Positions 4,365 to 20,249 of a stretch of DNA of 24,000 bases are shown one piece after another. The notes below the pieces were generated by a model, which did not search any database, was not told the origin of the DNA, and saw nothing but the letters and a program-made list of their open reading frames with translations. The first letter of the stretch is position 1; the number at the start of each line of letters is the position of its first letter. Made by a program: the position numbers and the translations under genes. The stretch lies in NCBI RefSeq assembly GCF_036421915.1, contig NZ_JAZGOM010000007.1. One strand, given 5' to 3'. Source of the stretch: Georgenia wangjunii. GTDB taxonomy: Bacteria > Actinomycetota > Actinomycetes > Actinomycetales > Actinomycetaceae.

Positions 4365-4457
4365 GGGTCCTCCTCGTCGAGGAACGGGGCGCGGGCCGGG
4401 AGCGGACCCGGTTAGGGCGCCTGGGCGTGGGTCGGTCTGGGTGGGTCGGGAGGACGC

Positions 4458-5477: not shown

Positions 5478-5513
5478 AGCGCGACCATACCGTGCTGCCT
5501 GCCGTAACGAAAC

Positions 5514-5527
5514 CGTTATCGATAACG
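5514..5527. promoter_or_regulatory. candidate LacI-family operator: perfect 14-bp palindrome CGTTATCGATAACG, with a third TAACG half-site at 5505-5509
   Basis: Read directly. The sequence equals its own reverse complement. It lies in the 122-bp divergent intergenic region between the LacI gene and the SBP gene, and it immediately abuts the TTGACA box at 5529-5534. Confidence 0.6.
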
Positions 5528-5528
5528 A

Positions 5529-5558
5529 TTGACACCCCGGAAGCGGCCGTGCGATGCT
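5529..5558 (+). promoter_or_regulatory. candidate promoter of the ABC/GH3 operon (-35 TTGACA 5529-5534; weak -10-like GATGCT 5553-5558, 18-bp spacer)
   Basis: A consensus -35 hexamer was read directly. The -10 assignment is weak. The site is about 40 nt upstream of the SBP start codon. Confidence 0.4.
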
Positions 5559-5599
5559 CGCCGCGTTCTTGCAGTCAACGACGACGAAGGAAGCTCACT

Positions 5600-6919
5600 A
5601 TGGCGAGCAGGCGTTTCCTGTCCACCGTGGCCCTCGGGGCCAGTGCGGCCGTGATGCTGGCAGCGTGCGGGGGCGGTGACAGCGACACCGACGGTGCCGG
5701 CGGATCGACCGCCACCGGCGGCGGGGGCGGCGGCGACGTCACCCTCACGTGGTGGCACAACTCCAACTCCGACCCCGGCAAGGCGTACTACGAGGAGGTC
5801 GCGGCCGACTTCGAGGCCGCGAACGAGGGCGTGACCATCGAGATCAGTGCGCTCGCGCACGAGGACATGCTCACGCGGCTCGACGCGGCGTTCCAGACCG
5901 GCGACGCGCCGGACGTGTACATGGAGCGTGGCGGCGGCGAGCTCGCCTCCCACGTCGAGGCGGGCCTGACGATGGACCTCAGCGAGGTCGCGGCCGAGGA
6001 GATCGAGATGATCGGCCCCTCGGTCGCGGGCTGGCAGTACGAGGACAAGACCTACGCCCTGCCGTTCTCCGTGGGCGTCGTCGGGTTCTGGTACAACACG
6101 GCGATGTTCGAGGAGGCCGGCATCACGGAGGCCCCCGAGACGATGGACGACCTCTACGCGGCGATCGACGCGCTCAAGGACTCCGGCGTCGAGCCGATCT
6201 CCGTGGGCGCGGGCGACAAGTGGCCCGCAGCCCACTACTGGTACTACTTCGCGGTCCGCGAGTGCAGCGAGGAGACGCTCGTCGCTGCCGGGGAGAGCAT
6301 GGACTTCTCGGACGAGTGCTTCATCCGCGCCGGTGAGGACCTCGAGGAGCTCGTCGCGGCCGAGCCGTTCAACTCCGGCTTCCTCGGCACCCCGGCCCAG
6401 ACGGGCGCGACGAGCGCCTCCGGCCTCCTCGCCACCGGCAGGGTCGCCATGGAGCTCGCCGGCCACTGGGAGCCCGGCGTCATGCAGGGCCTGACCGAGG
6501 ACAACGAGGGTCTCGGCGAGAACACGGGCTGGTTCCCGTTCCCGACGGTCGAGGGCGGCGAGGGCGACCCCGCGGCGCCGCTCGGCGGTGGTGACGCCTG
6601 GGCCTGCTCGGCGGACGCCCCGCCCGAGTGCGTCGACTTCATCCGGCACATGCTCAGCGACGAGGTCCAGACCGGCTTCGCCGAGCTCGACATGGGTGTA
6701 CCGACCAACCCCAACGCGACCGGGTCGATCACCAACCCGGCGCTCGCCGACCTCGTGACGGTCCGTGACGAGGCCCCCTACGTCCAGCTCTACCTGGACA
6801 CGCTGTTCGGGGAGAACGTCGGTGGCGCGATGAACGACGCGATCGCCCTCATGTTCGCGGGCCAGGCCACGCCGCAGGACATCGTGGACGCCTCGCAGGC
6901 CGCAGCAGACAACGCGTGA
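5600..6919 (+). CDS. ABC transporter extracellular solute-binding lipoprotein (CUT1 sugar family; bxlE-like position)
   Basis: I place the start at ATG 5600, preceded by GAAGGAAG. The N-terminus MASRRFLSTVALGASAAVMLAAC has a lipobox (LAAC) followed by a Gly/Asp-rich linker, then a family-1 SBP body. The 5492 start in the track would run through the operator/promoter region. Confidence 0.9.
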   Translation: MASRRFLSTVALGASAAVMLAACGGGDSDTDGAGGSTATGGGGGGDVTLTWWHNSNSDPGKAYYEEVAADFEAANEGVTIEISALAHEDMLTRLDAAFQTGDAPDVYMERGGGELASHVEAGLTMDLSEVAAEEIEMIGPSVAGWQYEDKTYALPFSVGVVGFWYNTAMFEEAGITEAPETMDDLYAAIDALKDSGVEPISVGAGDKWPAAHYWYYFAVRECSEETLVAAGESMDFSDECFIRAGEDLEELVAAEPFNSGFLGTPAQTGATSASGLLATGRVAMELAGHWEPGVMQGLTEDNEGLGENTGWFPFPTVEGGEGDPAAPLGGGDAWACSADAPPECVDFIRHMLSDEVQTGFAELDMGVPTNPNATGSITNPALADLVTVRDEAPYVQLYLDTLFGENVGGAMNDAIALMFAGQATPQDIVDASQAAADNA

Positions 6920-7929
6920 GTGACGTGGCAGAGAACGTGACCGCCCCCCGGGCGGATGCGGCCACTGCCACCACACCCCACGGTTCGCGTGCCGCGGGAG
7001 GTCGGCGTGGCTCCGGTCCGCTCTCCATGTCCGGGCGCAAGCGGCTCGAGATCGCGTTCTTCGTGGGCCCTGCGCTCGCCCTGTTCGCCGTCTTCGTCGT
7101 CGTCCCGGTGGTCCAGGCGGTGCGCTACTCGACGTTCCGCTGGAACGGCTTGGGCCCGCTCGACGACTTCATCGGGTTCCAGAACTACGCGAGCGCCCTG
7201 CGCGACAACGTCTTCACCGACGCCGTCATGCACAACCTCACGATCGTCGTCCTGTCGATCCTCATCCAGCTCCCGCTCGGCCTGGCCATCGCGCTCCTGC
7301 TCAACCGGGAGATGTGGGGCCGGACGATCATGCGGGTCGTCATCTTCGTGCCGTACGTCCTGGCCGAGGTCGTCGCCGGCGTCATCTGGCTCATGTTGCT
7401 CCAGCCGGGCGGGCTCGTGGACGCCCTCTTCGACTCCCTCGGGCTCGGCGGGCTCAGCCAGCTGTGGCTCGGCGACCCGGACGTCGCGCTCTACACCGTC
7501 ATGGTCGTCCTCACGTGGAAGTACCTCGGGCTGGCGATCATCCTCTTCCTCGCCGGCCTCCAGGGCGTCCCGACGGACCTGTACGAGGCCGCCCAGCTCG
7601 ACGGCGCGTCGTGGTGGCAGGTGCAGCGCCGGATCACGATCCCGCTGCTCGGCCCGACGATCCGCACGTGGGGCTTCCTGTCGATGATCGGGTCGCTCCA
7701 GCTCTTCGACATGGTCTGGATCCTCACGAAGGGCGGACCCGCCAACTCGACGATGACGATGGCGACGTACCTCATCAACCAGGGCACGGACCGCAGCCTG
7801 TACGGCTACGCGTCCGCGGTGGCGGTGCTCCTCTTCGGGATCTCGCTCGTCATCGCGGCCTTCTACCAGTTCTTCGTCCTGCGCCGGGACAACCCCGACG
7901 CCCCCGCCCCGCGGAAGGTGAAGCGATGA
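6916..7929 (+). CDS. carbohydrate ABC transporter permease (MalF/LacF-like; bxlF-like position)
   Basis: Six-TM permease with the EAA-type loop YEAAQLDGASWWQVQRRITIPLL. GTG 6916 overlaps the SBP stop. An in-frame ATG at 7027 (MSGRKRLEIAFFVG) is an equally plausible start. Confidence 0.88.
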   Translation: MSDVAENVTAPRADAATATTPHGSRAAGGRRGSGPLSMSGRKRLEIAFFVGPALALFAVFVVVPVVQAVRYSTFRWNGLGPLDDFIGFQNYASALRDNVFTDAVMHNLTIVVLSILIQLPLGLAIALLLNREMWGRTIMRVVIFVPYVLAEVVAGVIWLMLLQPGGLVDALFDSLGLGGLSQLWLGDPDVALYTVMVVLTWKYLGLAIILFLAGLQGVPTDLYEAAQLDGASWWQVQRRITIPLLGPTIRTWGFLSMIGSLQLFDMVWILTKGGPANSTMTMATYLINQGTDRSLYGYASAVAVLLFGISLVIAAFYQFFVLRRDNPDAPAPRKVKR

Positions 7930-8825
7930 GCGCCCCCGTCACCACCCCGGCGCCAGGCCGCCCGGCGGTCCTCGGTACGACGCCCCGCCGGCGCCGCAGC
8001 AGCAACGCGTTCCGCGGCGGCAACCCGCTCGTGTACGCCGCGGCGTTCGTCGTCCTCGCCGCGACCCTGGGCCCCGTCATCTACGCGATCCTCGGCGGCT
8101 TCCGGTCCACCCCGCAGCTCGCCGCGGACCCGGTGGGCCTGCCCGACCCGTGGGTGCTGACGAACTACACGAACGTCCTCACGTCGGGAGCGTTCTGGCG
8201 CTTCGCCCTCAACTCCACCATCGTCGCCCTCGTGACGACGGCCATGGTCGTCGTCTTCGGCGTCATGGCCGCCTACCCGCTCGCGCGCTACCGGTTCCGG
8301 GGACGCGAGGCGCTCAACCTCATGTTCACCCTCGGGCTGCTGTTCCCGCTGACGGTGGCGATCATCCCGCTCTTCCTCATGCTGCGGGACATGGGCCTGA
8401 CGAACACGTTCTGGGGGGTGGCGCTGCCGCAGGCGGCGTTCGCCCTGCCGATGACGATCGTCATCCTGCGCCCGTTCCTCATGGCGCTGCCCAAGGAGCT
8501 CGAGGAGGCGGCCATGCTCGACGGCACCTCCCGCATCGGCTTCTTCTGGCGGATACTCATCCCGCTGTCCGGGCCCGCGATGGTGACCGTCGGGGTCCTC
8601 GCGTTCGTCGCGTCGTGGAACGCCTACCTCCTGCCCCTGCTCATCCTCAACGACCCGGCCGCGCAGACCCTGCCGCTCGGGGTGGCGAGCTTCTCCAGCC
8701 AGTACGCCCAGGACACCGCGGGCGTGCTCGCCTTCACGTCGCTGGCGATGATCCCCGCGCTCGTCTTCTTCCTCGCGATGGAGAAGCGCATCGTCAACGG
8801 GCTCCAGGGCGCCGTCAAGGGCTGA
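7926..8825 (+). CDS. carbohydrate ABC transporter permease (MalG/LacG-like; bxlG-like position)
   Basis: ATG 7926 overlaps the upstream stop (ATGA) and is preceded by GGAAGGTGA. The product is 299 aa with the EAA loop EEAAMLDGTSRIGFFWRILIPL. The 7314 start in the track is an out-of-frame overlap artefact. Confidence 0.9.
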   Translation: MSAPVTTPAPGRPAVLGTTPRRRRSSNAFRGGNPLVYAAAFVVLAATLGPVIYAILGGFRSTPQLAADPVGLPDPWVLTNYTNVLTSGAFWRFALNSTIVALVTTAMVVVFGVMAAYPLARYRFRGREALNLMFTLGLLFPLTVAIIPLFLMLRDMGLTNTFWGVALPQAAFALPMTIVILRPFLMALPKELEEAAMLDGTSRIGFFWRILIPLSGPAMVTVGVLAFVASWNAYLLPLLILNDPAAQTLPLGVASFSSQYAQDTAGVLAFTSLAMIPALVFFLAMEKRIVNGLQGAVKG

Positions 8826-8862
8826 TCTCGGCCCCGATCACACAGAGAACGAAGGAAGAACC

Positions 8863-11175
8863 GTGGCAGACGTACAGGTGTGGACCGAGCGCGCAGCCGG
8901 GGCCCCGGCGAGCGAGCGCGTCGCCGCGCTCATGGCCGAGATGACGCTCGAGGAGAAGCTCGCGCAGATCGTGGGTCTGTGGGTGGGCGCCGGGGCGGAC
9001 GGCGAGGTCGTCGCCCCGCTCCAGGACGCCATGCTGGGGGAGACGGCACCGGAGTTCGAGACGTTCGCCACGAACGGGCTCGGCCACCTCACCCGGGTCT
9101 TCGGGACCCGGCCGGTCGAGCCCGCCGTCGGGCGCCGCGCCCTGCGGGACGCCCAGCGCTGGCTCGTCACCCGCACCCGCCTCGGCATCCCGGCCATCGC
9201 CCACGAGGAGTGCCTCACCGGGCTCGCGGCGTGGAAGGCGACGACCTTCCCGGCGCCGCTGTCGTGGGGCGCGAGCTTCGACGCGGACCTCGTCGAGCAG
9301 GTCGGGGCCGCGATCGGGGAGAGCATGGCGCGCCTCGGGGTGCACCAGGGCCTCGCCCCGGTGCTCGACGTCGTCCGCGACGCGCGCTGGGGTCGCGTCG
9401 AGGAGTGCATCAGCGAGGACCCCTACGTCGTCGGCACCGTCGGCACCGCCTACGTCCGGGGCATGCAGAGCGCCGGGGTCATCGCGACCCTCAAGCACTT
9501 CGTCGGGTACTCCGCCTCGCGTGCTGGGCGCAACCTCGCCCCCGTCAGCGCGGGCCCGCGCGAGGTGGCCGACGTGCTCCTCGTCCCGTTCGAGATGGCC
9601 GTGCTCGACGGCGGGGCGCGCTCGGTCATGCACTCCTACACGGACGTCGACGGCATGCCGGCCGCTGCCGACGCGCAGCTGCTCACCGGGCTCCTGCGCG
9701 AGCGGTGGGGCTTCGACGGCACGGTCGTCGCCGACTACTTCGGCGTCGCTTTCCTCCACACGCTCCACGCCGTGGCGGAGGACCTCGCCGACGCCGCGCA
9801 CCAGGCGCTCGCCGCGGGCATCGACGTCGAGCTGCCCACCGGCAACGCCTACCTCGCGCCGCTCACCGCGGCCGTCGAGTCCGGACAGGTCCCCGTCGCG
9901 CTCGTCGACCGGGCGCTCGCGCGGGTCCTGCGCGAGAAGGAGGCGCTCGGCCTCCTCGACGACGACTTCTCCGCCGAGCCCGACGGCGACGTCGACCTCG
10001 ACCCGGCGGAGCACCGGGCGCTCGCCGCCCGCCTCGCCGAGGAGTCGGTCGTGCTCCTCACAAACGACGGAACCCTCCCGCTGCGGGAGCCCGCCCGGGT
10101 CGCCGTCGTCGGCCCCAACGCCGACCGCGCCGAGGCGCTGTTCGGCTGCTACTCCTTCGCCAACCACGTCCTCGGGCAGCACCCGGGCACCGAGCTCGGC
10201 ATCGACGTGCCCACGGTGCTCGGGGCGCTGAGCGCCGAGCTCGCCGGCGCCACGGTGACGTACGCCCACGGATGCGCCGTCGACGACGCGGACCGGTCCG
10301 GCATCCCGGCGGCGGCCGAGGCGGCCGCGGAGGCCGACGTCGCGATCGTCGTCGTCGGGGACCAGGCCGGGCTCTTCGGTCGCGGGACGAGCGGGGAGGG
10401 CTGCGACCGCGACGACCTCGAGCTGCCCGGCGTCCAGCGCGAGCTCGTCGAGGCGGTCCTCGCGACCGGGACCCCGGTCGTCCTCGTCATGGTGACCGGC
10501 CGCCCCTACGCCGTCGACTGGGCGCTCGGGCGGTGCGCCGCCGTCGTCCAGGCGTTCTTCCCGGGCGAGGAGGGGGCCGCGGCCGTGGCGGGCGTCCTGT
10601 CCGGGCGCGTCAACCCGTCCGGGCGGCTGCCCGTCACCCTGCCGCGCTCGGCGGGCGCGCAGCCCTACTCCTACCTCCATGCCCGGCTCGGTGGCGCGTC
10701 GTCCGTGAGCAACGTGCCGACGCTGCCCGCGCTGCCCTTCGGGCACGGGCTGTCGTACACCTCGTTCGCCTACTCGGCCTTCCGCGTGAGCCAGCAGGAG
10801 GTCTCCACCGGCGGGTCGATCGGGGTGCGCGTCACGGTGCGCAACGACGGCGACCGGGCGGGCGCCGAGGTCGTCCAGCTCTACGGGCACGACGTCGTCG
10901 GCTCGATCACGCGGCCCGTCGCGCAGCTGCTCGCCTACGCGCGGGTCGAGCTCGCGCCGGGGGAGAGCGCCACCGTCGACCTCACCGTGCCGACGACGCG
11001 CCTCGCGTTCAGCGACCGGCGGATGCGCCGCGTCGTCGAGCCGGGGGCGGTCGACCTGTGGATCGGGCGCTCGTGCGCTGAGCGGGTGCTCGAGGGGCGC
11101 GTCGAGCTCGTCGGCGACGTCCACGAGGTGACCGTCGACGACGAGAGGTGGTCCGACGTCGTCGTCACGCGCTGA
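8863..11175 (+). CDS. glycoside hydrolase family 3 (beta-xylosidase/beta-glucosidase type; bxlA-like position), no signal peptide
   Basis: 770-aa ORF with an SD (GAAGGAAG) upstream. The GH3 N-terminal domain has the nucleophile motif GFDGTVVADY, followed by a C-terminal alpha/beta domain and a fibronectin-like terminal domain. It is the last gene of the ABC operon. Confidence 0.9.
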   Translation: MADVQVWTERAAGAPASERVAALMAEMTLEEKLAQIVGLWVGAGADGEVVAPLQDAMLGETAPEFETFATNGLGHLTRVFGTRPVEPAVGRRALRDAQRWLVTRTRLGIPAIAHEECLTGLAAWKATTFPAPLSWGASFDADLVEQVGAAIGESMARLGVHQGLAPVLDVVRDARWGRVEECISEDPYVVGTVGTAYVRGMQSAGVIATLKHFVGYSASRAGRNLAPVSAGPREVADVLLVPFEMAVLDGGARSVMHSYTDVDGMPAAADAQLLTGLLRERWGFDGTVVADYFGVAFLHTLHAVAEDLADAAHQALAAGIDVELPTGNAYLAPLTAAVESGQVPVALVDRALARVLREKEALGLLDDDFSAEPDGDVDLDPAEHRALAARLAEESVVLLTNDGTLPLREPARVAVVGPNADRAEALFGCYSFANHVLGQHPGTELGIDVPTVLGALSAELAGATVTYAHGCAVDDADRSGIPAAAEAAAEADVAIVVVGDQAGLFGRGTSGEGCDRDDLELPGVQRELVEAVLATGTPVVLVMVTGRPYAVDWALGRCAAVVQAFFPGEEGAAAVAGVLSGRVNPSGRLPVTLPRSAGAQPYSYLHARLGGASSVSNVPTLPALPFGHGLSYTSFAYSAFRVSQQEVSTGGSIGVRVTVRNDGDRAGAEVVQLYGHDVVGSITRPVAQLLAYARVELAPGESATVDLTVPTTRLAFSDRRMRRVVEPGAVDLWIGRSCAERVLEGRVELVGDVHEVTVDDERWSDVVVTR

Positions 11176-11184
11176 CCCACCGGA

Positions 11185-11210
11185 GGGCGGGGGCCGGCGA
11201 CGGCCCCGCC
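11185..11210 (+). terminator. GC-rich hairpin after the GH3 gene (GGCGGGGGCCG-gcga-CGGCCCCGCC), no T-tract
   Basis: Read directly 10 nt after the GH3 stop. It is a near-perfect 10-bp stem with one bulged G. The lack of a U-tail is common for actinobacterial intrinsic terminators but lowers confidence. Confidence 0.5.
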
Positions 11211-11286
11211 TCGTCCGGGAATGGGCTCACGCGGTCGTCGTGCATCGCCGTCGTGACCCCCGGAGCGGCGCGCGTCACATCGGCGC

Positions 11287-12237
11287 GTGACAGAATCCAG
11301 TAATCCGGATACTGTCCGATGCATGGCCCTGCCGAAGATCCTCATGTCTCGCGTCGGATACGTCACCGCGCAGCTCGCCGAGATGCTCTCCGGGTACGAG
11401 CTCGGCGACCGGATCCCGAATGTCGAGGGACTCACCGCCCAGCTCCACTGCGGCAAGGGCACCGTCCAGGCCGCCTTTGCCGCGCTCGAGCAGGCGGGTG
11501 CCCTCGCCCTTCGCTCGCGCGGGCACCTCGGGACGTTCATCGACGCCATCGACCACCCGCTCCTGTGGGAGCTCGCCGGCCATCGCACCGTCACCATCGC
11601 CATGCCGCTTCCGTACTCGCGACGCTACGAGGGACTCGCGACGGGCCTGCACGCGACGTTCCGGGACCACAGCATCCCGATGTCGCTCATGTTCATGCGC
11701 GGCTCCGTCGAGCGGGTCGGGGCGCTGCGGGAGGATCGCACGGACCTCGTCGTCCTCTCGGCGCTCGCCGCCTCGTACGAGCCGGACGTCGAGGTCGTCC
11801 ATGACTTCGGGCCGGAGACCTACGTGCACTCGCACTGCGTCATCGTCAGCGAGGGGCGCGACCCGCAGGACCCCACGCTGCGCGTCGCGGTCGACCGCTC
11901 GTCCGCGGACCTTCTCGCGCTCGTCGAGCAGGTCTTCGGCGAGCTGCCCCCCGAGCGCCTCGTCGAGGTGTCCTACAACCAGCTCGACCACGCGTTCCAC
12001 TCCGGCGCTATCGACGCGACCGTGTGGAACGCCGACGAGGTCCGGGCGCACATCACCGCGCCCATCGACGTCCACCCGCTCCCGCAGGCGGCGGGCATTG
12101 ACAACACACGCGCCGTCGTCGTGCGGATGCGCAAGGAGCAGCCCGTCGCCGTCGGCGTCCGGGAAGCCCTGACCGACCCCGCCGTCACGGCGATCGCCGC
12201 GGGCGTGGTCGACGGCCGCACCACGCCCACCTACTAG
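11287..12237 (+). CDS. YhfZ-family putative transcriptional regulator (GntR-like wHTH plus ligand-binding-like C-terminal domain)
   Basis: wHTH signature IPNVEGLTAQLHCGKGTVQAAFAALEQAGALALRSRGHLGTFI, followed by an alpha/beta domain. It resembles E. coli YhfZ as I recall it and is the first gene of the yhf-like operon. The start is uncertain (GTG 11287, ATG 11323 or ATG 11344). Confidence 0.78.
   Translation: MTESSNPDTVRCMALPKILMSRVGYVTAQLAEMLSGYELGDRIPNVEGLTAQLHCGKGTVQAAFAALEQAGALALRSRGHLGTFIDAIDHPLLWELAGHRTVTIAMPLPYSRRYEGLATGLHATFRDHSIPMSLMFMRGSVERVGALREDRTDLVVLSALAASYEPDVEVVHDFGPETYVHSHCVIVSEGRDPQDPTLRVAVDRSSADLLALVEQVFGELPPERLVEVSYNQLDHAFHSGAIDATVWNADEVRAHITAPIDVHPLPQAAGIDNTRAVVVRMRKEQPVAVGVREALTDPAVTAIAAGVVDGRTTPTY
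11298..11314. promoter_or_regulatory. AT-richer near-palindrome CAGTA-ATCCGGA-TACTG at the 5' edge of the yhfZ-like gene
   Basis: 5-bp perfect arms (CAGTA/TACTG) flank a TCCGGA core. This is the lowest-GC spot in the 11176-11345 region. It lies inside the annotated ORF if GTG 11287 is the start, and upstream of it if ATG 11323 or ATG 11344 is used. Confidence 0.35.
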
Positions 12238-12244
12238 GAGAACC

Positions 12245-12622
12245 ATGGACCCGACCCTCCGCCAGCGCCTCGAGCTCTTCCGCACGATGGACGAGGTCCC
12301 CGCCGGCGTCGTCGACCTCGTCGAGGACGAGCTCGTCCGCGTGGACCCGGCGGGCCGCCTCAGCGACGACAGCGCCGGGATGTTCGTCTCGCACGCCGTC
12401 ATGGCGTTCAGCCGGCTCCTCGGCGACGAGGACCCGGTTGACGCCCCGAGCGACGCCGTCTTCGACCAGGTCCTCACGGAGGACCCGACGGCCTTGGCGC
12501 GGGCCGGCGCACTCGCCGAGCGGGCGCGCCAGCGCCTCGGCCGCGCCCTGCCCGACGCCGAGGTGAAGTACCTCACCATCCACCTCGCCGTGCTCGCACA
12601 GCATCTTTCAAAGGAGAACTGA
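12245..12622 (+). CDS. stand-alone PRD-domain protein (YhfY-like)
   Basis: 125-aa all-helical ORF with two His in PRD-like contexts: FVSH50AVMAF at 12392-12394 and YLTIH113LAVL at 12581-12583. Size and position match E. coli YhfY. Confidence 0.72.
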   Translation: MDPTLRQRLELFRTMDEVPAGVVDLVEDELVRVDPAGRLSDDSAGMFVSHAVMAFSRLLGDEDPVDAPSDAVFDQVLTEDPTALARAGALAERARQRLGRALPDAEVKYLTIHLAVLAQHLSKEN

Positions 12623-12984
12623 TGAGAATCATCGCCGGAGGTGTCGGCAAGTCCCAGGTCGCCGACGTCCTCAAGACCCTTGTCCGGCCCACAGACGTCG
12701 TCGTCGTGGGGAGCGACATGGACGCCGCGATCAAGCTGAAGACGGGGCAAGCCGACTACTACCTCGGTACGTGCCACACGGGCGCCGGCGCGAGCCTTGG
12801 CGTCCTCGTCGGGATGCTGGGCGGCGACAAGTGCCACACCTTCGCCCGTCACGTCCCCACGGCGGAGGGCGTCGACGCGGCGCTCGCAGCCGGCAAGGTC
12901 GCCTTCGGCTTCTCCGTCGACCAGATCGCCGAGGCCGTTCCGGTCCTGTGGGACGCCCTCATGCGTAAGGAATCGGACTCGTGA
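12622..12984 (+). CDS. DUF2620-family protein (YhfU-like)
   Basis: 120 aa. The ATG overlaps the upstream stop (TGATG). The motif GQADYYLGTCHTGAGASLG and the C-terminal GKVAFGFSV resemble E. coli YhfU as I recall it. Confidence 0.78.
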   Translation: MRIIAGGVGKSQVADVLKTLVRPTDVVVVGSDMDAAIKLKTGQADYYLGTCHTGAGASLGVLVGMLGGDKCHTFARHVPTAEGVDAALAAGKVAFGFSVDQIAEAVPVLWDALMRKESDS

Positions 12985-14387
12985 TCACCCCCGTCCTCTC
13001 CGCCGTTGCCGACGCGGGCGGCAGCGTCAGCTTCGCCACGTGGCAGTCCGTCATCGTCATGGTGACGACCGCCTTCGCCGCGGTCATCGCCCACTACGGG
13101 CTCGCAGTCTTCAACGACGGCGCCCGCCCCTTCATGCTCGACTTCATCCGCGGCAACACGAGCCGGATGGCGACGGCGACGATCGTCTTCGGCCTCTCCG
13201 CGGGCTTCATCTTCGGCCTCGGCGCGCCCATGGCGCTCTCGACCGGCGTCCTCAACCCGTGGCTCATCTTCCTTCCTGCCGAGATCCTCGGCCTGCTCGC
13301 GCCGTGGCGGTGGCTCGCCGGTGCCGCCGGGCTCGCGTGGGGCGCGGTGTGCGCCTACGGACTCTCCGCAGTCAATAGCGCCGCCCAGCAGCTCCCGGTC
13401 GACTTCATCACGGCGCTCCAGCAGATCGGCACGCCGATCCTGTGGCTCTTCGCCATGTTCCCCGTCATCGCCGTGGCGCGGCAGTTCGGGCGCACCAGGG
13501 GCCTCATCACGTTCGGCGCCGAGGCTGCCGTCATCGTCGCCTCCACCGTCCTCTTCCCGAGCATGTTCGCCGGCTCCCTCGCCATGGCGATCGGCGTCAT
13601 CCTTCTGCTCGTCTTCGCCCTGACGAAGGACCGCTCCGACAAGCGGGTGGAGGTCGCAGCGCTGGCCGGCATGGACGAGGCGACCCGCGCCGAGGTGGCC
13701 GCCGCCAAGGCCTCCTCCGAGGAGGCTGTCAACCAGCTCTTCGGCCCGAACGCTGAGCGGCTGCGCAAGAACGTGCCCTGGCTCGCGATCCTCGGCGGAC
13801 TCGTCGCGGCGCTATCGGCGACGCACATCTTCGCGGGCGGGGAGGCGACGAGCTTCCTCATCGCCGACGGCAACATCGTCGAGGCCGCCCAGGTCGACTT
13901 CTATCGGGCCTTCGGGTTCATCCCCCTCATCGCCACGACGGCGCTCGCCTCAGGTGCGTACGCCCTAGCCGGTTTCACGTTCGTCTACCCGGCGGGATAC
14001 CTCCTCGGGCACGTCATCGACAACCCCGCCGTCGCGCTGGCTGTGGCGTTCGTCGTCGGCGCCCTCATCTTCTGGGCCGAGGTTATCGCCCTGAGCGCCC
14101 TCGGGAAGTGGCTGCAGCGCTGGCCCTCCGTGCGTGACTCGGCCGACCACATCCGCAACGCCATCCACGAGTCCCTCCAGGTCGCGATCCTCGTCGGCTC
14201 CCTCATGGCGGCCCTCGCCATGGGTGGTGGCCTCGGCATCTTCATCGTCGGCGGGCTCTACCTGCTCAACGACGCGATCGGCCGCCCCGTCGTGCGGATG
14301 GCCGCCGGACCCGCCGCCGTCATCGTCGGCGGCATCGTGCTCAACCTGCTCTACCTCGTGGGGCTGTTCACCCCCGTTGCCGGCTGA
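12981..14387 (+). CDS. YhfT-like polytopic membrane transporter
   Basis: 468 aa with a GTGA overlap with the upstream gene. There are about 10-12 hydrophobic segments split by a charged central loop (KDRSDKRVEVAALAGMDEATRAEVAAAK). It is always paired with DUF2620 in the yhf cluster. Confidence 0.78.
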   Translation: MITPVLSAVADAGGSVSFATWQSVIVMVTTAFAAVIAHYGLAVFNDGARPFMLDFIRGNTSRMATATIVFGLSAGFIFGLGAPMALSTGVLNPWLIFLPAEILGLLAPWRWLAGAAGLAWGAVCAYGLSAVNSAAQQLPVDFITALQQIGTPILWLFAMFPVIAVARQFGRTRGLITFGAEAAVIVASTVLFPSMFAGSLAMAIGVILLLVFALTKDRSDKRVEVAALAGMDEATRAEVAAAKASSEEAVNQLFGPNAERLRKNVPWLAILGGLVAALSATHIFAGGEATSFLIADGNIVEAAQVDFYRAFGFIPLIATTALASGAYALAGFTFVYPAGYLLGHVIDNPAVALAVAFVVGALIFWAEVIALSALGKWLQRWPSVRDSADHIRNAIHESLQVAILVGSLMAALAMGGGLGIFIVGGLYLLNDAIGRPVVRMAAGPAAVIVGGIVLNLLYLVGLFTPVAG

Positions 14388-14401
14388 GCGGGGGGCGCAT
14401 C

Positions 14402-15373
14402 ATGACGATCCAGACCGTCGACGGCCCGCTCTCGCCGGAGGAGGTCGACGGCGTCGTGCTCCCGCACGAGCACCTCGCCATCGACCTGCGTACCGAGACC
14501 GACCGGGCCGGCGTGCTCGACCACCCCGACCTCGTGAGCACAGAGCTTGCCGCAGCGAGGGAGCACGAGGGCCTGGCGCTCGTCGTCGACCAGACGTGCC
14601 GTGGCATGGGCCGCGACGTCGGGGCGCTGCGCACGATCGCGCAGCGCTCCGGCGTCGCGGTGGTGGCCAGCACCGGGTGGTACTACGAGCGCTTCCACCC
14701 GGAGCGCGAGCCGGGGGACGACGTCGGCGCCGCGACCGAGCTCCTCGTGGCCGACCTCACCGTGGGCCTGGACGGCACGGACGCCCTCGCCGGCGTCATC
14801 GGCGAGGTGGGCACGCACGGCGACGAGCCGTCCACCGCGGAGCGGGTGAGCCTGCTCGCTGCGGGCCGCGCGGCCGTCGCGACGGGCCGCCCGGTGTCCA
14901 CGCACGCCCATCTTGGTCGCGGAGCGCTCGCCCAGCTCGACCTGCTCCTCGGCACCGGGGTCGAACCCCAGCGGATCAGCATCGGCCACCAGGACCTCAC
15001 GGACGCCACTGCCCAGCACGTGGCCCTCGCCGAGGCCGGGGCGTACGTCGCGTTCGACACGGCGGGCAAGGACTCCTACCAGCCGGACGGCGTGCGCCTG
15101 CGGCTCGTCCTCGCGCTCCTCGAGCGCGGCCTCGGTCGCCACGTGCTCCTCAGCAACGACATCTCGCGCCACGGCTACCTCACCGCCCACGGCGGTCAGG
15201 GCTTCCGGCACGTCCTCGGCCCGTTCGCCGCCCGGCTGCGGGCGGCGGGCGTGGACGAGACCACCCTCGGCGACCTCTACCGCGCCAACGCGCTGCGCTG
15301 GCTCAGCGGGCGCGACCACGTCGGGACGCCGCCCACCGGTGGCGCTACGCACACGAAAGGACTGACGGCATGA
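14402..15373 (+). CDS. php: phosphotriesterase-homology protein (amidohydrolase superfamily, binuclear metal centre)
   Basis: 323 aa. Putative metal ligands are H22/H24 (LPHEHL, 14465-14473), E135 (GVIGEVG), H168 (VSTHAH), H196 (IGHQD) and D253 (LSNDIS). Their spacing equals that of the E. coli PHP ligands as I recall them (H12, H14, E125, H158, H186, D243; constant +10 offset). Confidence 0.9.
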   Translation: MTIQTVDGPLSPEEVDGVVLPHEHLAIDLRTETDRAGVLDHPDLVSTELAAAREHEGLALVVDQTCRGMGRDVGALRTIAQRSGVAVVASTGWYYERFHPEREPGDDVGAATELLVADLTVGLDGTDALAGVIGEVGTHGDEPSTAERVSLLAAGRAAVATGRPVSTHAHLGRGALAQLDLLLGTGVEPQRISIGHQDLTDATAQHVALAEAGAYVAFDTAGKDSYQPDGVRLRLVLALLERGLGRHVLLSNDISRHGYLTAHGGQGFRHVLGPFAARLRAAGVDETTLGDLYRANALRWLSGRDHVGTPPTGGATHTKGLTA

Positions 15374-16491
15374 CGCCGAGCACCGCGGGGCGCCCCACCC
15401 TGCCGGCCACTACCCCGCTCCCCGCGCTGGACACCGCTGGCGCTTTCGCCCTGCAGCAGCGGCTCGTCGCGGCGACGTGCGCGTCGCTGCCCGGGGAGGC
15501 CCTGTTCCGGGCGGACGTCGGCGTCGTCCCCGGTCTCGGTCGGCCCGAGACCACCGCCCGGGTGGAGCGGGTCCTCGCCGAGGCGCTCGGCGCCGAGGAC
15601 GCGTGCCTCGTCCAAGGGGCCGGCACCGGCGCGATCCGCGCCGCGCTCTCGGCGGGCCCCTGGCGCGAGGGCGAGCGCAGGCTGCTCCTCCACGACGCCC
15701 CCGACTACTCGACGACGGCGACGACGTTCCGCGACGCCCTCGTCGAGCCGGTCCGCGTCGACATGGACGACGCGGACGCGATCGCCGCCGCGCTCGCCGA
15801 TCCGGCGAGCCCCCGGTGGGTGTACGTCCAGCACACCCGGCAGCGACTCTCCGACGCGTTCAACCCCATGGACGTCGTCGCGCTCGCTCGCGAGCACGGC
15901 CGCCGGGTCGTCGTCGACGAGAACTACGCCGTCGTACGCACACCGGGGATCGGCGTCGAGCACGGCGCGGCCGCGTCGGCCTTCTCGCTCTTCAAGCTCC
16001 ACGGCCCGGAGGGCGTCGGCGTCGTCCTCGGGGATGCCGACGTCGTCGCCGCCGCGCACGCGGCCAACTACTCCGGCGGCGGCCAGGTCCAGGGCCACCA
16101 GGCGATCGCGGCGCTCCAGGCCCTCGTCTCGGCGCCCCTCAACTGGGCGCGCCAGTCGGAGGAGGTCTACCGCCTAGCGGAGGCCCTCAGGGCTGGGGCC
16201 GTTCCCGGCATCGCCGACGCCGCCGTCGCCAACGTCCAGGACCTGTGCGTCGTCGCCCTCCTAGAGACCCCCACCGCCGACGACGTCCGGCGCCGCGCCG
16301 CGGAGAACGGTGCCGCTCCGTACCCCGTCGGCTCGAACTCGCGGTACGAGATCGCGCCGATGGTGTACCGGATGTCCTCCTCCACGCTCGAGGCCCAGCC
16401 TGAGCTGCGCGACTGGACCCTCCGGATCAACCCCATGCGCGCGAGCGCGGACCTCGTCGTCGACATCCTCCGCCGGTCTCTCGCGGCCTGA
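15370..16491 (+). CDS. YhfS-like fold-type-I PLP-dependent enzyme
   Basis: ATG 15370 overlaps the php stop (ATGA), giving 373 aa. It has VVVDENY (the Asp typical of fold type I) and SLFK209LHGPEG (candidate Schiff-base Lys). The upstream 412 codons of track ORF 14134..16491 are an out-of-frame overlap of yhfT/php. Confidence 0.78.
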   Translation: MTPSTAGRPTLPATTPLPALDTAGAFALQQRLVAATCASLPGEALFRADVGVVPGLGRPETTARVERVLAEALGAEDACLVQGAGTGAIRAALSAGPWREGERRLLLHDAPDYSTTATTFRDALVEPVRVDMDDADAIAAALADPASPRWVYVQHTRQRLSDAFNPMDVVALAREHGRRVVVDENYAVVRTPGIGVEHGAAASAFSLFKLHGPEGVGVVLGDADVVAAAHAANYSGGGQVQGHQAIAALQALVSAPLNWARQSEEVYRLAEALRAGAVPGIADAAVANVQDLCVVALLETPTADDVRRRAAENGAAPYPVGSNSRYEIAPMVYRMSSSTLEAQPELRDWTLRINPMRASADLVVDILRRSLAA

Positions 16492-16500
16492 AAGGCTCCC

Positions 16501-17676
16501 GTGTTCCTCGAAACGACCCAGCACCGTAACCCCGCGCTCATCGACGTGGCGCACGAGCTCCATGCCCGCGGGCAGATCGACCCCGACACCTACGTCATCG
16601 ACCGCGACACGGTCGCGGAGAACGCCCGGGCGATCGCGGGCACGGCGGCTGCGCACGGCGTCGTGCCGTGGTTCGTCGTCAAGCAGATCGGGCGCAACCC
16701 CCTCCTCGCAGCGACGATCGCGGAAGCCATCCCGCGCGCCGCGGCGATCGACGTCCGCGAGGTGTCCGGTCTCCTCCGCGCAGGCGCCCGCCTCGGCAAC
16801 GTCGGCCACCTCGTCCAGATCCCGCGCCGCTCGCTGCCCCGCGTCCTGTCCGCCCGCCCCGCGTACGCGACCGTCTACGACGTCGCCAACCTCGAGGCGG
16901 TCGACGCCGCCGCAGCCGAGCTCGGGACCGTCCAGGACGTCATCCTCCGGATCGCGGGCGACCCGGAGACGACGTACCCCGGCCAGGAGGGCGGCATCGA
17001 GGCGGCGGACGTGCTGGCCGTGCTCGAGCGTGCGTCCCGGCTCGCCCACGTGCGGGTCGCCGGTGTCACCGGGTTCCCGTGCGTCCTCTTCGACGCGCGC
17101 ACAGGCGTCACAACGCTCACCCCGACGTTCGACCGGGTCATGGCGGCGGCAGAGGTCATGCGCGCCTACGGGGTCGAGCCCGTCGTGAGCCTGCCGAGCC
17201 ACTCGAGCTGCTCGACGATCCCCCTCCTGGCCGCGGCCGGCGCGACGCACGTCGAGCCGGGGCACGCCCTCACGGGGACCACTCCCGAGCACGTGGTCCG
17301 AGACGACCTCGAGGAGCGGCCGGCGCTCGTCTACGTCTCCGAGGTGGCGCAGGTCGGGCCGCGGGCGGCGCTGTTCGGCGGCGGCTTCTACGCCCGCGGG
17401 CGCGCGAGGAACGTGCTCGTCGGCTCCGGCGACCGCGCCCGCCGCGGCCACCTCGCCACAGCCCCCGGGGAGAACATCGACTACTACAGGCGCTTCGACC
17501 TCGACCCAGGGTCTGAGCCGGCCGTGCTGGGCGAGGTCGCCCTCATGGCGTTCCGCACGCAGATCTTCGTCACCCGCTCGCGGGTGGCCGTGGTCTCGGG
17601 AATCGCCAGCGGCCGGCCGGTGGTCGACGGCATCTTCGACTCGCTCGGCAACGCGGTCCCGGAGGAGACGGTATGA
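16501..17676 (+). CDS. YhfX-like fold-type-III PLP enzyme (alanine-racemase N-terminal TIM-barrel type)
   Basis: 391 aa with a GTG start 9 nt after the upstream stop. The N-terminus MFLETTQHRNPALIDVAHELHARGQIDPDTYVIDRD and the candidate PLP Lys in FVVK61QIGRNP resemble E. coli YhfX as I recall it. Confidence 0.82.
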   Translation: MFLETTQHRNPALIDVAHELHARGQIDPDTYVIDRDTVAENARAIAGTAAAHGVVPWFVVKQIGRNPLLAATIAEAIPRAAAIDVREVSGLLRAGARLGNVGHLVQIPRRSLPRVLSARPAYATVYDVANLEAVDAAAAELGTVQDVILRIAGDPETTYPGQEGGIEAADVLAVLERASRLAHVRVAGVTGFPCVLFDARTGVTTLTPTFDRVMAAAEVMRAYGVEPVVSLPSHSSCSTIPLLAAAGATHVEPGHALTGTTPEHVVRDDLEERPALVYVSEVAQVGPRAALFGGGFYARGRARNVLVGSGDRARRGHLATAPGENIDYYRRFDLDPGSEPAVLGEVALMAFRTQIFVTRSRVAVVSGIASGRPVVDGIFDSLGNAVPEETV

Positions 17677-18905
17677 CCGCGACGGTGCTCGTCCTCGACG
17701 GGTTCGGCATCGGGGCGATGGGGGACGCCGGCATGCTGCGGACCGAGGACGCCCGGGCGGACACCCTCGGGTCCCTGGTGCGTTGGGCGCGGGAGACGCG
17801 TGGGCGCGAGCTGGACGTCCGGCACCTTGCCGGCCTGGGCCTCGCCGCCCTGCGGCCCGACCTAGGGCTAGCCATCGAGACCGCCGGCGTGCGGGCCACC
17901 GCCCGCCGCAGCGCACTCGGCTACCCCGGCGCGGACACCTTCGCCGGGCACCAGACGATGATGGGCGCGGACATGTCCCGCGTCGTTGTCTGCCCCTTGA
18001 GCCAGCGCATCGACGAGGTGCGCGCCGCCCTCGAGGAGGCGGGGCACCGGACGGCGCTCCTCGACGGGAAGCCGGTCATCGTCGTCGACGACGCGATGCT
18101 CGTCCACGACAATCTCGAGGCGGACCCGGGCCTCAACTGGAACGTCTCGGCGCGGCTCGAGCTCGTACCGTGGGAGCAGATCCTCGCCGCCGCGGAAGCA
18201 GTGCGCGCTGTCGCGCCCGTCGCGCGGGTCATCGCCGTCGGTGGGCGCTCCGACCGGCCCCTCACGGAGTCCGTGCGGCCGGGGGACTTCGGCACGATCG
18301 GCATGGACACCCCGGCCAGCGGGTTCTACCGCAACGGCGGGCTCCAGGTGCAGCACCTCGGCGCGGACATCGACCACAGCCGCCAGCTGCCCGAGCTTGC
18401 GGCGCGGGCGGGGCTGCCGGTCACGCTCGTCGGCAAGGCCGCGGACATCCTCGTCACCGACGCGGAGGTGACCCGCCTGCCCGGTGTCGAGACGGAGGAG
18501 ATCCTCACCGACACGCTGCGGGCGGCCACCGGCGGGGGCCTCGTCGTGTCGAACGTCCAGCAGACCGACCTCGCGGGCCACCAGCAGGACCCCGGCCGCT
18601 TCGTCACCATGCTCGAGATGGTCGATGCGGCGGTCCCCGAGCTCGTCGCGTCCCTCCGGGACCCCGGTGACCTCCTCGTCGTCGTCGCGGACCACGGCAA
18701 CGACCCGCTCATCGGGCACGGCTACCACACGCGCGAGTACGTGCCGGTCCTCGCCGTCACCCCCGGGCGGGCGGCCACGGGGGTCGGCGAGGTCCTCACC
18801 TCCCTGGCCGACGTCGGTGCGTCCGTCGCGGCCGCGCTCGGACTGGACCCGACGGCCCTCGGCAACGGTCGCCCGACGGACCTCATGGTCGCCGGACGGC
18901 CGTAG
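17673..18905 (+). CDS. YhfW-like phosphopentomutase-family mutase (alkaline-phosphatase/metalloenzyme superfamily)
   Basis: 410 aa with an ATGA overlap with yhfX-like. DeoB-like motifs are VLVLD9GFGIG, GADT89FAGHQ (nucleophile Thr position), DLAGHQQD and VVADHGNDP. Confidence 0.85.
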   Translation: MTATVLVLDGFGIGAMGDAGMLRTEDARADTLGSLVRWARETRGRELDVRHLAGLGLAALRPDLGLAIETAGVRATARRSALGYPGADTFAGHQTMMGADMSRVVVCPLSQRIDEVRAALEEAGHRTALLDGKPVIVVDDAMLVHDNLEADPGLNWNVSARLELVPWEQILAAAEAVRAVAPVARVIAVGGRSDRPLTESVRPGDFGTIGMDTPASGFYRNGGLQVQHLGADIDHSRQLPELAARAGLPVTLVGKAADILVTDAEVTRLPGVETEEILTDTLRAATGGGLVVSNVQQTDLAGHQQDPGRFVTMLEMVDAAVPELVASLRDPGDLLVVVADHGNDPLIGHGYHTREYVPVLAVTPGRAATGVGEVLTSLADVGASVAAALGLDPTALGNGRPTDLMVAGRP

Positions 18906-19032: not shown

Positions 19033-19611
19033 TCAGTCGCCGTAGACGATCTCCACGCGGCGGTTCGCGGCGTACGTGCTCGGGTCGTCCGGGTTTTCCT
19101 GCACGGCCGGCTCGGCGTCCGCGAAGCCCGCGACCTCGAGCGCGAGGTCGGGCCGCGCGGCGGCGACGACGTCGGCCACGGCCTGCGCGCGGTTGCGCGA
19201 GAGCTCGTCGTTGGGGATCGGTCCGACGAGCGAGTCGGTGTGCCCGTGCACCTGGACGGCGGCGCCCTCGGGCACGTCGGCGAGGAGCTCGGCGATGCGC
19301 GGGGCGGCGCTGGCCGGCAGGTCGTAGCTCTGCGAGGCGAAGAGGATGTCGGTGGCGAGGGAGATCGTCGTCTCCGTGCCCTCGGTCTCGACGGTCTCGA
19401 GCGAGCGCACGCTGCCCGCTACCTGCCACTGCTGCACCGAGCCGGCGGGGTCCCAGGCGTGCACCGCGGCCGCGAGCTGGTCGGCGGTGGGGGCGGGCAG
19501 GTCGTCGGGGGACTCCGCTGCGGCGCCCAGGGCGGTCGCACCGGTCATCGCGACGGCGGCGGCGAGGGCAGCGGCGGCGGCCCGTGGCCGGCGGGAGGCG
19601 GGGTGGCTCAC
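19033..19611 (-). CDS. OmpA-C-like (peptidoglycan-binding) domain protein with an N-terminal signal/anchor
   Basis: The C-terminal motif series HGHTDSLVGPIPNDELSRNRAQAVADVV..ANRRVEIVY is diagnostic for the OmpA/MotB domain. I place the start at GTG 19609-19611, overlapping the upstream stop (GTGA), giving 192 aa with the hydrophobic stretch AAAAALAAAVAMTGATALGAAA. Confidence 0.85.
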   Translation of the reverse strand: MSHPASRRPRAAAAALAAAVAMTGATALGAAAESPDDLPAPTADQLAAAVHAWDPAGSVQQWQVAGSVRSLETVETEGTETTISLATDILFASQSYDLPASAAPRIAELLADVPEGAAVQVHGHTDSLVGPIPNDELSRNRAQAVADVVAAARPDLALEVAGFADAEPAVQENPDDPSTYAANRRVEIVYGD

Positions 19612-20249
19612 GGGACCGGGATGCCGGTGTACTCGGGCAGCGAGTCGCGCAGCCGCAGGTCGAAGGTGTCGATGTCGTCCTCGGGCGCCGCGTACACGCC
19701 CCACCAGACGACCTGCTCGCCGTTGACGGCCTCGAGCTCGACGGTGCTCGCAGTCCAGTCGAACGCCATGTTGCTGACGGGGGAGTACTCCTTGAGGTTC
19801 TCCCGGTCCACGAGGACGGGGCGGAACTTCATGGCGTTGTTCGGGTACATGTCGTACACGGCGACCGGCTCGTCGTCCTCGACGGAGGCGAAGTTCGGGG
19901 TGAACACGAGGCGCAGAGTCATGACGTCACCCTCGACCTCGAGAGGCAGGACGCCGACCGTCACCTCGTCCTCCGTGCCGGGGAGGATGTAGGAAACCTC
20001 GGCGAGGACGTCGTCGGGATCGATGTCGCGGGCCGCCGCGCCGCTCGCGCCGGGAGCGTCGTCGCCGGACGGGTCGTCCGCCGTTGGCTTCCCGCTCGAG
20101 TCCTCGGCCGTCGTCGCCTGCTCCGCGGTCGAGGCGTCGTCGGAGGCGTCGTCCCCGCTGCACCCGCCCAGCACGAGGGCCAGTGCCGCGGCGCCCGCCG
20201 CCACGGCAGGTCGTGCCCGTCTCGCGCCGCTCGGTCGTGTCCGTCTCAT
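19608..20249 (-). CDS. secreted lipoprotein of unknown function (acidic low-complexity linker plus about 140-aa beta-rich domain)
   Basis: I place the start at ATG 20247-20249, preceded by GAGGAG. The N-terminus MRRTRPSGARRARPAVAAGAAALALVLGGCSGDD has a lipobox (LGGC), and the product is 213 aa. The longer 20432 start in the track adds an Arg-rich non-coding-looking extension. Confidence 0.75.
   Translation of the reverse strand: MRRTRPSGARRARPAVAAGAAALALVLGGCSGDDASDDASTAEQATTAEDSSGKPTADDPSGDDAPGASGAAARDIDPDDVLAEVSYILPGTEDEVTVGVLPLEVEGDVMTLRLVFTPNFASVEDDEPVAVYDMYPNNAMKFRPVLVDRENLKEYSPVSNMAFDWTASTVELEAVNGEQVVWWGVYAAPEDDIDTFDLRLRDSLPEYTGIPVP

Follow-up and report, generated by a model that had tools for sequence, protein, structure and literature searches.

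An intact eight-gene yhf-type operon in Georgenia wangjunii and a candidate catabolic role for its family

A 24,000-nucleotide (nt) stretch of DNA from Georgenia wangjunii (Actinomycetota), called the window below, was analysed for its yhf-type gene cluster. Eight yhf genes lie on the plus strand at positions 11323-18905, and the locus is a genuine, intact and complete eight-gene yhf-type operon. The copy is an ordinary orthologue, and its arrangement is the standard one in Gram-positive phyla. We consider it somewhat better than an even bet that operons of this type serve the inducible uptake and catabolism (or salvage) of a nitrogen-bearing sugar derivative handled as a phosphate ester.

Results

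Gene content and junctions

The first-pass annotation had described eight same-strand genes with overlapping start and stop codons, and the overlaps and gene ends proved exact when the open reading frames (ORFs) and junctions were checked. The eight plus-strand ORFs ended at 12237, 12622, 12984, 14387, 15373, 16491, 17676 and 18905. Start and stop codons overlapped at four junctions: TGATG at 12620-12624 (yhfY/yhfU), GTGA at 12981-12984 (yhfU/yhfT), ATGA at 15370-15373 (php/yhfS) and ATGA at 17673-17676 (yhfX/yhfW). The gaps at the remaining junctions were 7 nt (yhfZ/yhfY), 14 nt (yhfT/php) and 9 nt (yhfS/yhfX). The genes and their control elements were as follows.

11185-11211, plus strand: GC-rich hairpin GGGCGGGGGCCGGCGACGGCCCCGCC, just past the stop codon of the upstream GH3 gene; likely terminator
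11287-11315, plus strand: conserved block; putative promoter with an embedded putative operator
11323-12237, plus strand: yhfZ, 304 aa; GntR-like helix-turn-helix regulator with a YhfZ_C ligand-binding domain
12245-12622, plus strand: yhfY, 125 aa; stand-alone PRD-like protein
12622-12984, plus strand: yhfU, 120 aa; small alpha/beta protein, DUF2620
12981-14387, plus strand: yhfT, 468 aa; polytopic membrane protein, presumed permease
14402-15373, plus strand: php, 323 aa; phosphotriesterase-homology protein, binuclear-metal amidohydrolase
15370-16491, plus strand: yhfS, 373 aa; fold-type I pyridoxal phosphate (PLP) enzyme
16501-17676, plus strand: yhfX, 391 aa; fold-type III, alanine-racemase-like PLP enzyme
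17673-18905, plus strand: yhfW, 410 aa; phosphopentomutase-like mutase, alkaline-phosphatase superfamily

The GC content at third and second codon positions was 0.88-0.95 and 0.42-0.54, respectively, in each of the eight ORFs. This pattern is typical of true genes in a high-GC genome, and all eight ORFs were therefore accepted as real genes. A purine-rich stretch resembling a Shine-Dalgarno sequence preceded the start codon in six of the seven downstream genes, and php had a G-run only. The GC content of the operon (0.70-0.76) was like that of most of the flanks (0.69-0.77), and the exact YhfU sequence was matched on contig JAZGON010000007.1 of G. wangjunii assembly GCA_036421975.1. Both results agree with the earlier description of a host-like GC content in an actinobacterium. 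The tight packing, with overlaps or gaps of at most 14 nt, and the single conserved promoter-like block upstream would fit one transcription unit.

Product families and catalytic residues

Each product had been paired with one gene of the E. coli cluster, and this one-to-one match was borne out by Pfam and NCBIfam families, by BLAST and, for YhfY, by hhalign. The HMM comparison with Pfam and NCBIfam, a check set beforehand, placed every product in its expected family. Seven products aligned over their full length with their E. coli K-12 namesakes at 31-44% identity, YhfY being the exception.

YhfZ scored 280.4 bits with the NCBIfam model YhfZ_full (cut-off 260), contained the domains HTH_41 and YhfZ_C (Pfam E 3.8e-52) and was 31% identical to E. 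coli YhfZ. The Pfam PRD match of YhfY was sub-threshold (E 1e-3) and equal in strength to that of E. coli YhfY. BLAST gave no alignment between these two proteins. When 21 actinobacterial and Ktedonobacteria Y proteins were compared with 50 enterobacterial YhfY proteins, hhalign joined the two families with a probability of 96.8% (E 2.4e-10, 119 columns). His50, Ala54 and Arg57 of YhfY were invariant in 71 of 71 sequences, and this His-x3-Ala-x2-Arg motif is the signature position of phosphorylatable PRD histidines.

Php matched Pfam PTE (E 2.2e-49), and its best PDB relatives were the E. coli PHP entries 1bf6 and 4lef (E 3e-49). The H-H-E-H-H-D binuclear site of E. coli PHP was kept, and the metal ligands H22, H24, E135, H168, H196 and D253 were conserved in at least 97% of 81 homologues. 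Beyond these ligands R232 and R256 were invariant, which is compatible with an anionic substrate. Php reached 195 bits with the NCBIfam PHP equivalog model, under the cut-off of 486. It also fell far under the NCBIfam cut-offs for OPH and for phospho-furanose lactonase.

YhfS matched Pfam YhfS-like_C (E 4e-36) together with aminotransferase domains, and PDB entry 4j8l (YhfS) with E 1.4e-81. It was 44% identical to E. coli YhfS, and Asp183 and Lys209 (S-x-x-K) were conserved. YhfX contained Ala_racemase_N and YhfX-like_C domains in Pfam and matched PDB entry 4kbx (YhfX) with E 3.6e-72; its residues Lys61, His255, Tyr297, Arg299 and Arg359 were invariant across 74 sequences. YhfW scored 380 bits with NCBIfam PRK12383 'phosphopentomutase' (cut-off 254) and also matched Pfam Metalloenzyme. 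Its nearest solved relatives are phosphopentomutases, and it aligned to the B. cereus phosphopentomutase. D9, D88, T/S89, D299, H303, D340, H341 and H352 were invariant in 68 sequences. YhfW thus has the same metal ligands and Thr/Ser nucleophile as DeoB, but it scored only 87-117 bits with the DeoB models (cut-offs 256-341) and belongs to the separate PRK12383 family. By these comparisons neither YhfW nor Php is the characterised enzyme, be it DeoB or one of the PTE-family lactonases and hydrolases. Catalytic residues were at least 97% conserved among about 70-80 homologues, this copy included, and the enzymes are therefore under purifying selection.

YhfU matched Pfam DUF2620 (E 3.8e-37), and the PDB sequence search gave no solved relative. 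Only one of its cysteines is invariant, C51 in the loop G-x-C51-x-T53-G-A-G56 that follows the third strand. An AlphaFold (AF2) model built from 36 homologues had a pLDDT of 95, and its nine best Foldseek matches in the PDB were all RpiB (ribose-5-phosphate isomerase B) or LacB (D-galactose-6-phosphate isomerase); their E values ran from 8.5e-4 to 5e-3 and their TMq from 0.58 to 0.64, at probability 1.00. No IIB protein of the phosphotransferase system (PTS) was found among the significant PDB matches. The YhfU motif C51-x-T53-G-A-G56 paired with the RpiB catalytic loop C66-G-T68-G-V-G in every alignment made. Furthermore, the first natural matches of the YhfU profile among PDB sequences were the RpiB-like proteins 2ppw and 3c5y, aligned across the same loop but only at E 0.12 and 0.48. 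YhfU is therefore predicted from the model to be RpiB-like in fold and loop, sharing with RpiB and LacAB the alpha/beta fold and a cysteine loop after strand 3 (C-G-T-G-x-G in RpiB, C-x-T-G-x-G in YhfU), and to have no PTS IIB fold.

YhfT matched Pfam YhfT (E 1.5e-137) and was 39% identical to E. coli YhfT, from which it differs in a longer central hydrophilic linker. Its AF2 model (pLDDT 86.7) was all-helical, with a hydrophilic helix joining two hydrophobic halves. Foldseek gave no match for this model in the PDB (best E 0.06, TM <0.2), and no solved relative was found in the PDB sequence search. The YhfT profile found only 309 representatives among 1.84 billion proteins, and YhfT is therefore regarded as an isolated small family. 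An internal duplication was rejected; hhalign gave a probability of 9% and no repeat. Of the earlier label of membrane transporter, the membrane part stands and the transport role is a presumed one.

In nearly every locus yhfU adjoined yhfT on the upstream side, and the few apparent inversions were artefacts of stop-to-stop sorting. A metagenomic protein of 294 aa (P0445) was examined as a YhfU-YhfT fusion. Its YhfU similarity ended at about residue 80, followed by an unrelated stretch and then YhfT, and the likeliest cause is a frameshift in the contig, not a genuine gene fusion. On the Klebsiella pneumoniae plasmid pKP1601-1 (locus L100, 192-775), a gene of the RpiB/LacA/LacB family stands directly 5' of a gene annotated as PTS transporter subunit IIC. 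This pair of an isomerase and a membrane protein is a superficial parallel to yhfU-yhfT.

Gene order and distribution

The E. coli K-12 region (b3383-b3376) was examined and gave the transcription order Z-Y-X-W-php-U-T-S, as the first-pass annotation had given it. The E. coli cluster and the window copy share the eight families, in single copies on one strand, and identical catalytic residues. They differ in that X-W follows Y in E. coli and stands at the end in the window, and in that php precedes U-T in E. coli and follows it in the window. The palindrome upstream of the window copy is also limited to the Actinomycetota/Ktedonobacteria clade.

A YhfT scan with one genome per species yielded 80 loci, on which the eight families were mapped; about 90 other loci were compared with the window copy overall. 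The window order Z-Y-U-T-php-S-X-W was found in about 20 Actinomycetota/Ktedonobacteria loci of the 80, including those of Enemella, Boudabousia, Aeromicrobium, Cellulomonas, Propionicimonas, Streptomonospora and Brachybacterium. The E. coli order was found in about 45 Enterobacterales loci. Among the Pfam-labelled loci, the window order or close variants of it occurred in Streptomyces albus, Harryflintia, Bacillus sp. 37MA, Thalassobacillus, Clostridium butyricum and Alicyclobacillus. Protein searches returned homologues from Ruania, Xylanimonas, Jiangella, Cellulomonas, Aeromicrobium, Nocardiopsis and many Streptomyces, and further ones from Thermoanaerobacterales, Coprothermobacter, Sebaldella, Vibrio and Photobacterium. 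The spread is patchy and covers Actinomycetota, Chloroflexota, Firmicutes, Fusobacteria and Gammaproteobacteria.

Clusters of Actinomycetota, Ktedonobacteria and Firmicutes with this order, such as those of Aeromicrobium, Cellulomonas, Streptomyces albus, Harryflintia and Bacillus sp. 37MA, were identical to the window copy in gene order and content and show no essential difference from it. In those of Actinomycetota YhfT identity was 57-78%, and the actinobacterial and Ktedonobacteria loci had the same upstream palindrome. Some relatives, unlike the window copy, which has no extra genes, contained NagB/Pgl-like, amidase-like or phosphatase genes, or were without yhfS.

The window order is the usual one outside Enterobacterales, and the E. 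coli arrangement is therefore the rearranged, lineage-specific one. The earlier proposal of a rearranged order with conserved sub-pairs was thus right about the pairs, since Z-Y, U-T and X-W stayed together in nearly all loci, and wrong about which order was rearranged. Similarly, the full set is indeed retained in a very distant phylum, as had been pointed out, but in Actinomycetota this is common rather than exceptional. Selection on the whole module, also proposed before, agrees with the kept sub-pairs but not with the losses of yhfS, and sometimes of yhfX-yhfW, in some lineages. C. butyricum, Vibrio tapetis and several Serratia had no yhfS, an Enterovibrio locus read Z-Y-php-U-T, and some Serratia and Shimwellia loci consisted of php-U-T only, followed by a PAP2 phosphatase gene. 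The constant core is php-yhfU-yhfT, and the module is divisible.

In Alicyclobacillus fastidiosus (locus L085, 8290-15625), yhfZ, php and yhfX were each called as two adjacent ORFs, which may reflect pseudogene decay or frameshift errors in the assembly.

Control region and the start of yhfZ

The 150 nt upstream of yhfZ were compared across related loci. The conserved block so identified consisted of a -35-like hexamer, a palindrome ATCCAG-N4-CYGGAT, an overlapping -10-like hexamer TAnnnT and an ATG 6-8 nt further on. In the window, the -35-like GTGACA (11287-11292) and the -10-like TACTGT (11310-11315) were separated by a 17-nt spacer. The palindrome ATCCAGTAATCCGGAT at 11295-11310 lay inside the spacer, its end overlapping the -10-like hexamer. 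With one mismatch allowed, 23 of 25 Actinomycetota/Ktedonobacteria loci had the palindrome in front of yhfZ, the background frequency being 0.24 hits per kb, and the 24-kb window contained one copy. It was absent 5' of yhfZ in all Enterobacterales, Vibrionaceae and Firmicutes loci and in the one Streptomyces locus scanned. In the simplest reading, the palindrome would be a putative YhfZ operator placed between the -35 and -10 elements.

The first-pass annotation had placed the yhfZ start at GTG 11287. The NCBI gene call and the conserved block both moved it 36 nt downstream, to ATG 11323, 7 nt past the -10-like box. The conserved block aligns at the GTG, with ATG 11323 downstream of it, and GTG 11287 therefore belongs to the -35-like box. 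There is no space for a ribosome-binding site before ATG 11323, and the yhf mRNA is therefore probably leaderless. Leaderless mRNAs are common in actinobacteria.

The hairpin at 11185-11211 is likely a terminator and would mark the upstream boundary of the yhf unit. It was not called by the consensus terminator scan because it lacks a T-tract. That scan found no E. coli-type sigma-70 promoter and no T-tract terminator, an absence expected at the GC content of this host. A riboswitch leader was rejected. No Rfam family, riboswitch or other RNA leader, reached threshold anywhere in the window, and in a paper on a riboswitch screen that names yhf genes, the operon serves only as a landmark.

Neighbouring genes

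The other features of the window were as follows.

353-1786: FGGY sugar kinase
1465-3072: MFS transporter
3069-4364, minus strand: GH10 xylanase
4458-5477, minus strand: LacI regulator
5492-8944: ABC sugar-binding protein and permeases
8863-11175: GH3 glycosidase
19033-20249, minus strand: two genes convergent on yhfW, for an OmpA-family protein (192 aa) and a 213-aa protein without a Pfam family
20595/20630-21749: tyrosine-recombinase (phage integrase) gene, followed by a low-GC region

The genes at 353-11175, beyond the hairpin, form a xylan/xyloside utilisation region that looks independent of the yhf operon. Neither of the two genes convergent on yhfW recurred beside yhf clusters elsewhere. 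The GC content at 22-24 kb was 0.58-0.66, the ORFs there had no Pfam matches, and no tRNA gene was found in the window. The segment 20595-24000 is probably the edge of an integrated mobile element, about 1.7 kb past the yhf operon. The neighbours in the window gave no hint of the yhf substrate.

Neighbourhoods elsewhere were surveyed in about 10 Pfam-labelled loci and in BLAST maps, a sample that does not amount to exhaustive statistics. Phosphatases of four unrelated superfamilies recurred beside the cluster: Serratia and Shimwellia had PAP2, Alicyclobacillus and Sebaldella HAD/Cof, Thalassobacillus a ComB-like phosphatase, and Bacillus sp. 37MA both HAD/Cof and a PHP-domain protein. In two Bacillaceae loci the gene next after the cluster was of the NagB/Pgl type, and an amidase-like gene lay within it in Alicyclobacillus and Sebaldella. 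A Na/Pi cotransporter/PhoU gene stood directly upstream of the cluster in C. butyricum (locus L084). Neither a sugar kinase nor a PTS component was seen in any Pfam-labelled yhf neighbourhood.

Three Serratia and Shimwellia loci had the gene of this PAP2-superfamily membrane phosphatase directly after yhfT (L063, 11350-12222; L075, 2803-3648; L069, 11338-12201), although in L069 the ORF was recognised solely from where it lies and how long it is. In Serratia and Shimwellia the core was preceded by an unannotated gene of about 298 aa without a Pfam match. In C. butyricum (L084, 1462-5713), Viral_Rep and Zot-like genes, resembling those of filamentous phages, lay a few kb from the yhf cluster.

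Discussion

Inducible catabolism or salvage is the reading that we favour because the operon combines two regulatory parts, a ligand-binding repressor whose candidate operator lies in its own promoter and a PRD protein whose histidine is conserved, with a membrane protein, an RpiB-like protein, a phosphomutase, two PLP enzymes and a metal hydrolase whose family contains lactonases and amidases. The patchy spread, together with a dedicated regulator and membrane protein, is also typical of accessory catabolic operons. The working order of events would be as follows. One leaderless polycistronic mRNA would be made from a promoter with the palindromic operator in its spacer. YhfZ would presumably hold this operator until its ligand arrives, and YhfY, which consists of a PRD only, may act as a second, phosphorylation-sensitive input. 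YhfT would carry the compound across the membrane, and Php would open a lactone, ester or amide bond. YhfU might then isomerise the sugar phosphate and YhfW shift the phosphate group, and YhfX and YhfS would carry out an epimerisation and then the removal or transfer of the amino group. We infer all of the biochemical roles and the substrate class, as well as co-transcription and the succession of steps.

Several observations count against this picture. The substrate class, a nitrogen-bearing sugar, sugar acid or lactone, or a sugar-amino-acid conjugate, is a guess from the enzyme families. The term transporter for YhfT draws on polytopic topology and constant presence, and the promoter, the operator and leaderless translation are all predicted features. 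For YhfU, sequence-level proof of membership in the RpiB family was not obtained. None of 36 YhfU members matched Pfam LacAB_rpiB even at E up to 10, and hhalign between YhfU and RpiB was colinear with a probability of only 14.6-21%, the value of 14.6% coming from an alignment of 13 RpiB, LacA and LacB sequences that we built from plasmid records. Compared with RpiB and LacAB, YhfU is also the shorter protein, by about 30 residues. The position of RpiB Asp9-His10 is occupied by G-G-V or A-G-L and is not conserved, and YhfU has neither the N-terminal Asp-His nor the C-terminal phosphate-binding residues of RpiB. Since it failed both the profile and the Asp-His motif, YhfU is regarded as related to RpiB in fold and not as a member of its family. 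The source of the phosphate ester is left unexplained, because no kinase was seen in the labelled neighbourhoods, and the modest breadth of that survey stands on the same side. Finally, the literature, searched mainly in non-subscription full texts, assigns no substrate, inducer, phenotype or pathway to any yhf member. Matches for the yhf names were B. subtilis namesakes, screen tables, strain B3379, a sigma-54 microarray list and a peptide-resistance screen. RefSeq lists all eight MG1655 products as putative or uncharacterised, and the 2025-2026 Pfam, NCBIfam and RefSeq names are placeholders. The first-pass statement that no substrate, inducer or phenotype had been established is therefore in keeping with the searchable record.

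The missing kinase keeps two other explanations alive. YhfU and YhfT might form a PTS-like group translocator, with YhfT as an IIC-like channel, YhfU as an IIB-like phospho-cysteine carrier and YhfY as a PRD sensor. Such a system would account for a phosphomutase without a kinase in the labelled neighbourhoods, and it would suit the constant position of yhfU directly 5' of yhfT, often with translational coupling (GTGA in the window), the single invariant cysteine of YhfU in a glycine-rich loop and the presence of a PRD protein with an invariant histidine. However, the structural matches of YhfU are to RpiB and LacB, and its cysteine follows strand 3 as in RpiB rather than strand 1 as in IIB. 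The YhfT model matched no solved IIC protein or other transporter, the 309 representatives of its profile provide no link to the large IIC families, and no gene for IIA, HPr or EI was found in the window or in any Pfam-labelled neighbourhood. The fold evidence and the small size of the YhfT family led us to reject a PTS IIB/IIC identity for YhfU and YhfT, and we regard the PTS-like translocator as a whole as unlikely. The compound might instead enter already phosphorylated, for example as an organophosphate ester of an amino sugar or amino acid, and be rearranged and finally dephosphorylated for phosphorus, nitrogen and carbon scavenging. With this agree a phosphomutase, a PTE-family hydrolase and recurrent phosphatases, including PAP2 after yhfT, in loci where no kinase was seen, as well as the invariant arginines of Php and the phosphate transport gene upstream of the C. 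butyricum cluster. Nevertheless, the window showed neither a Pho-box nor a phosphate-regulon gene, the operon's regulator is GntR-like and ligand-binding, not PhoB, and phosphatases are equally expected beside ordinary phosphosugar pathways. E. coli PHP, moreover, reportedly has no phosphotriesterase activity, which also speaks against this scheme. We hold it to be just as improbable as the translocator.

YhfT and its obligatory partner YhfU might, in a more speculative scheme to which we give a lower chance still, constitute a new uptake system that couples transport to isomerisation or phosphoryl transfer at the membrane, with the PRD protein monitoring it. If true, this coupling would resemble group translocation but represent a new mechanism, separate from the PTS. 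Least likely of all, and very improbable, is a biosynthetic or modifying cluster that would make a signalling molecule, a component of the cell envelope or a metabolite derived from an amino sugar. Amino-sugar biosynthesis does employ PLP enzymes, isomerases and mutases too, but no signature of a glycosyltransferase, nucleotidyltransferase, ligase or exporter was found in the window or the labelled neighbourhoods. A GntR-like ligand-binding regulator, a hydrolase and a patchy spread over five phyla fit nutrient use better, and in some genomes the content shrinks to the hydrolase, YhfU and the membrane protein.

The yhf cluster is among the larger fully conserved E. coli K-12 operons without an assigned function, and the same eight genes, with all catalytic residues kept, are present here in a distant high-GC phylum. 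Because the window copy is ordinary, it does not by itself open the functional problem; what makes the locus interesting is the unsolved function of its operon type and not the copy. The comparison supplies leads for that problem: the constant php-yhfU-yhfT core, a YhfU that looks more like an RpiB-type sugar-phosphate isomerase than like a transport accessory, the orphan family of YhfT, the candidate YhfZ operator of the actinobacterial/Ktedonobacteria clade and the recurrent phosphatases where no kinase was seen. The candidate operator would offer a direct route to the inducer through YhfZ-DNA binding and ligand screening.

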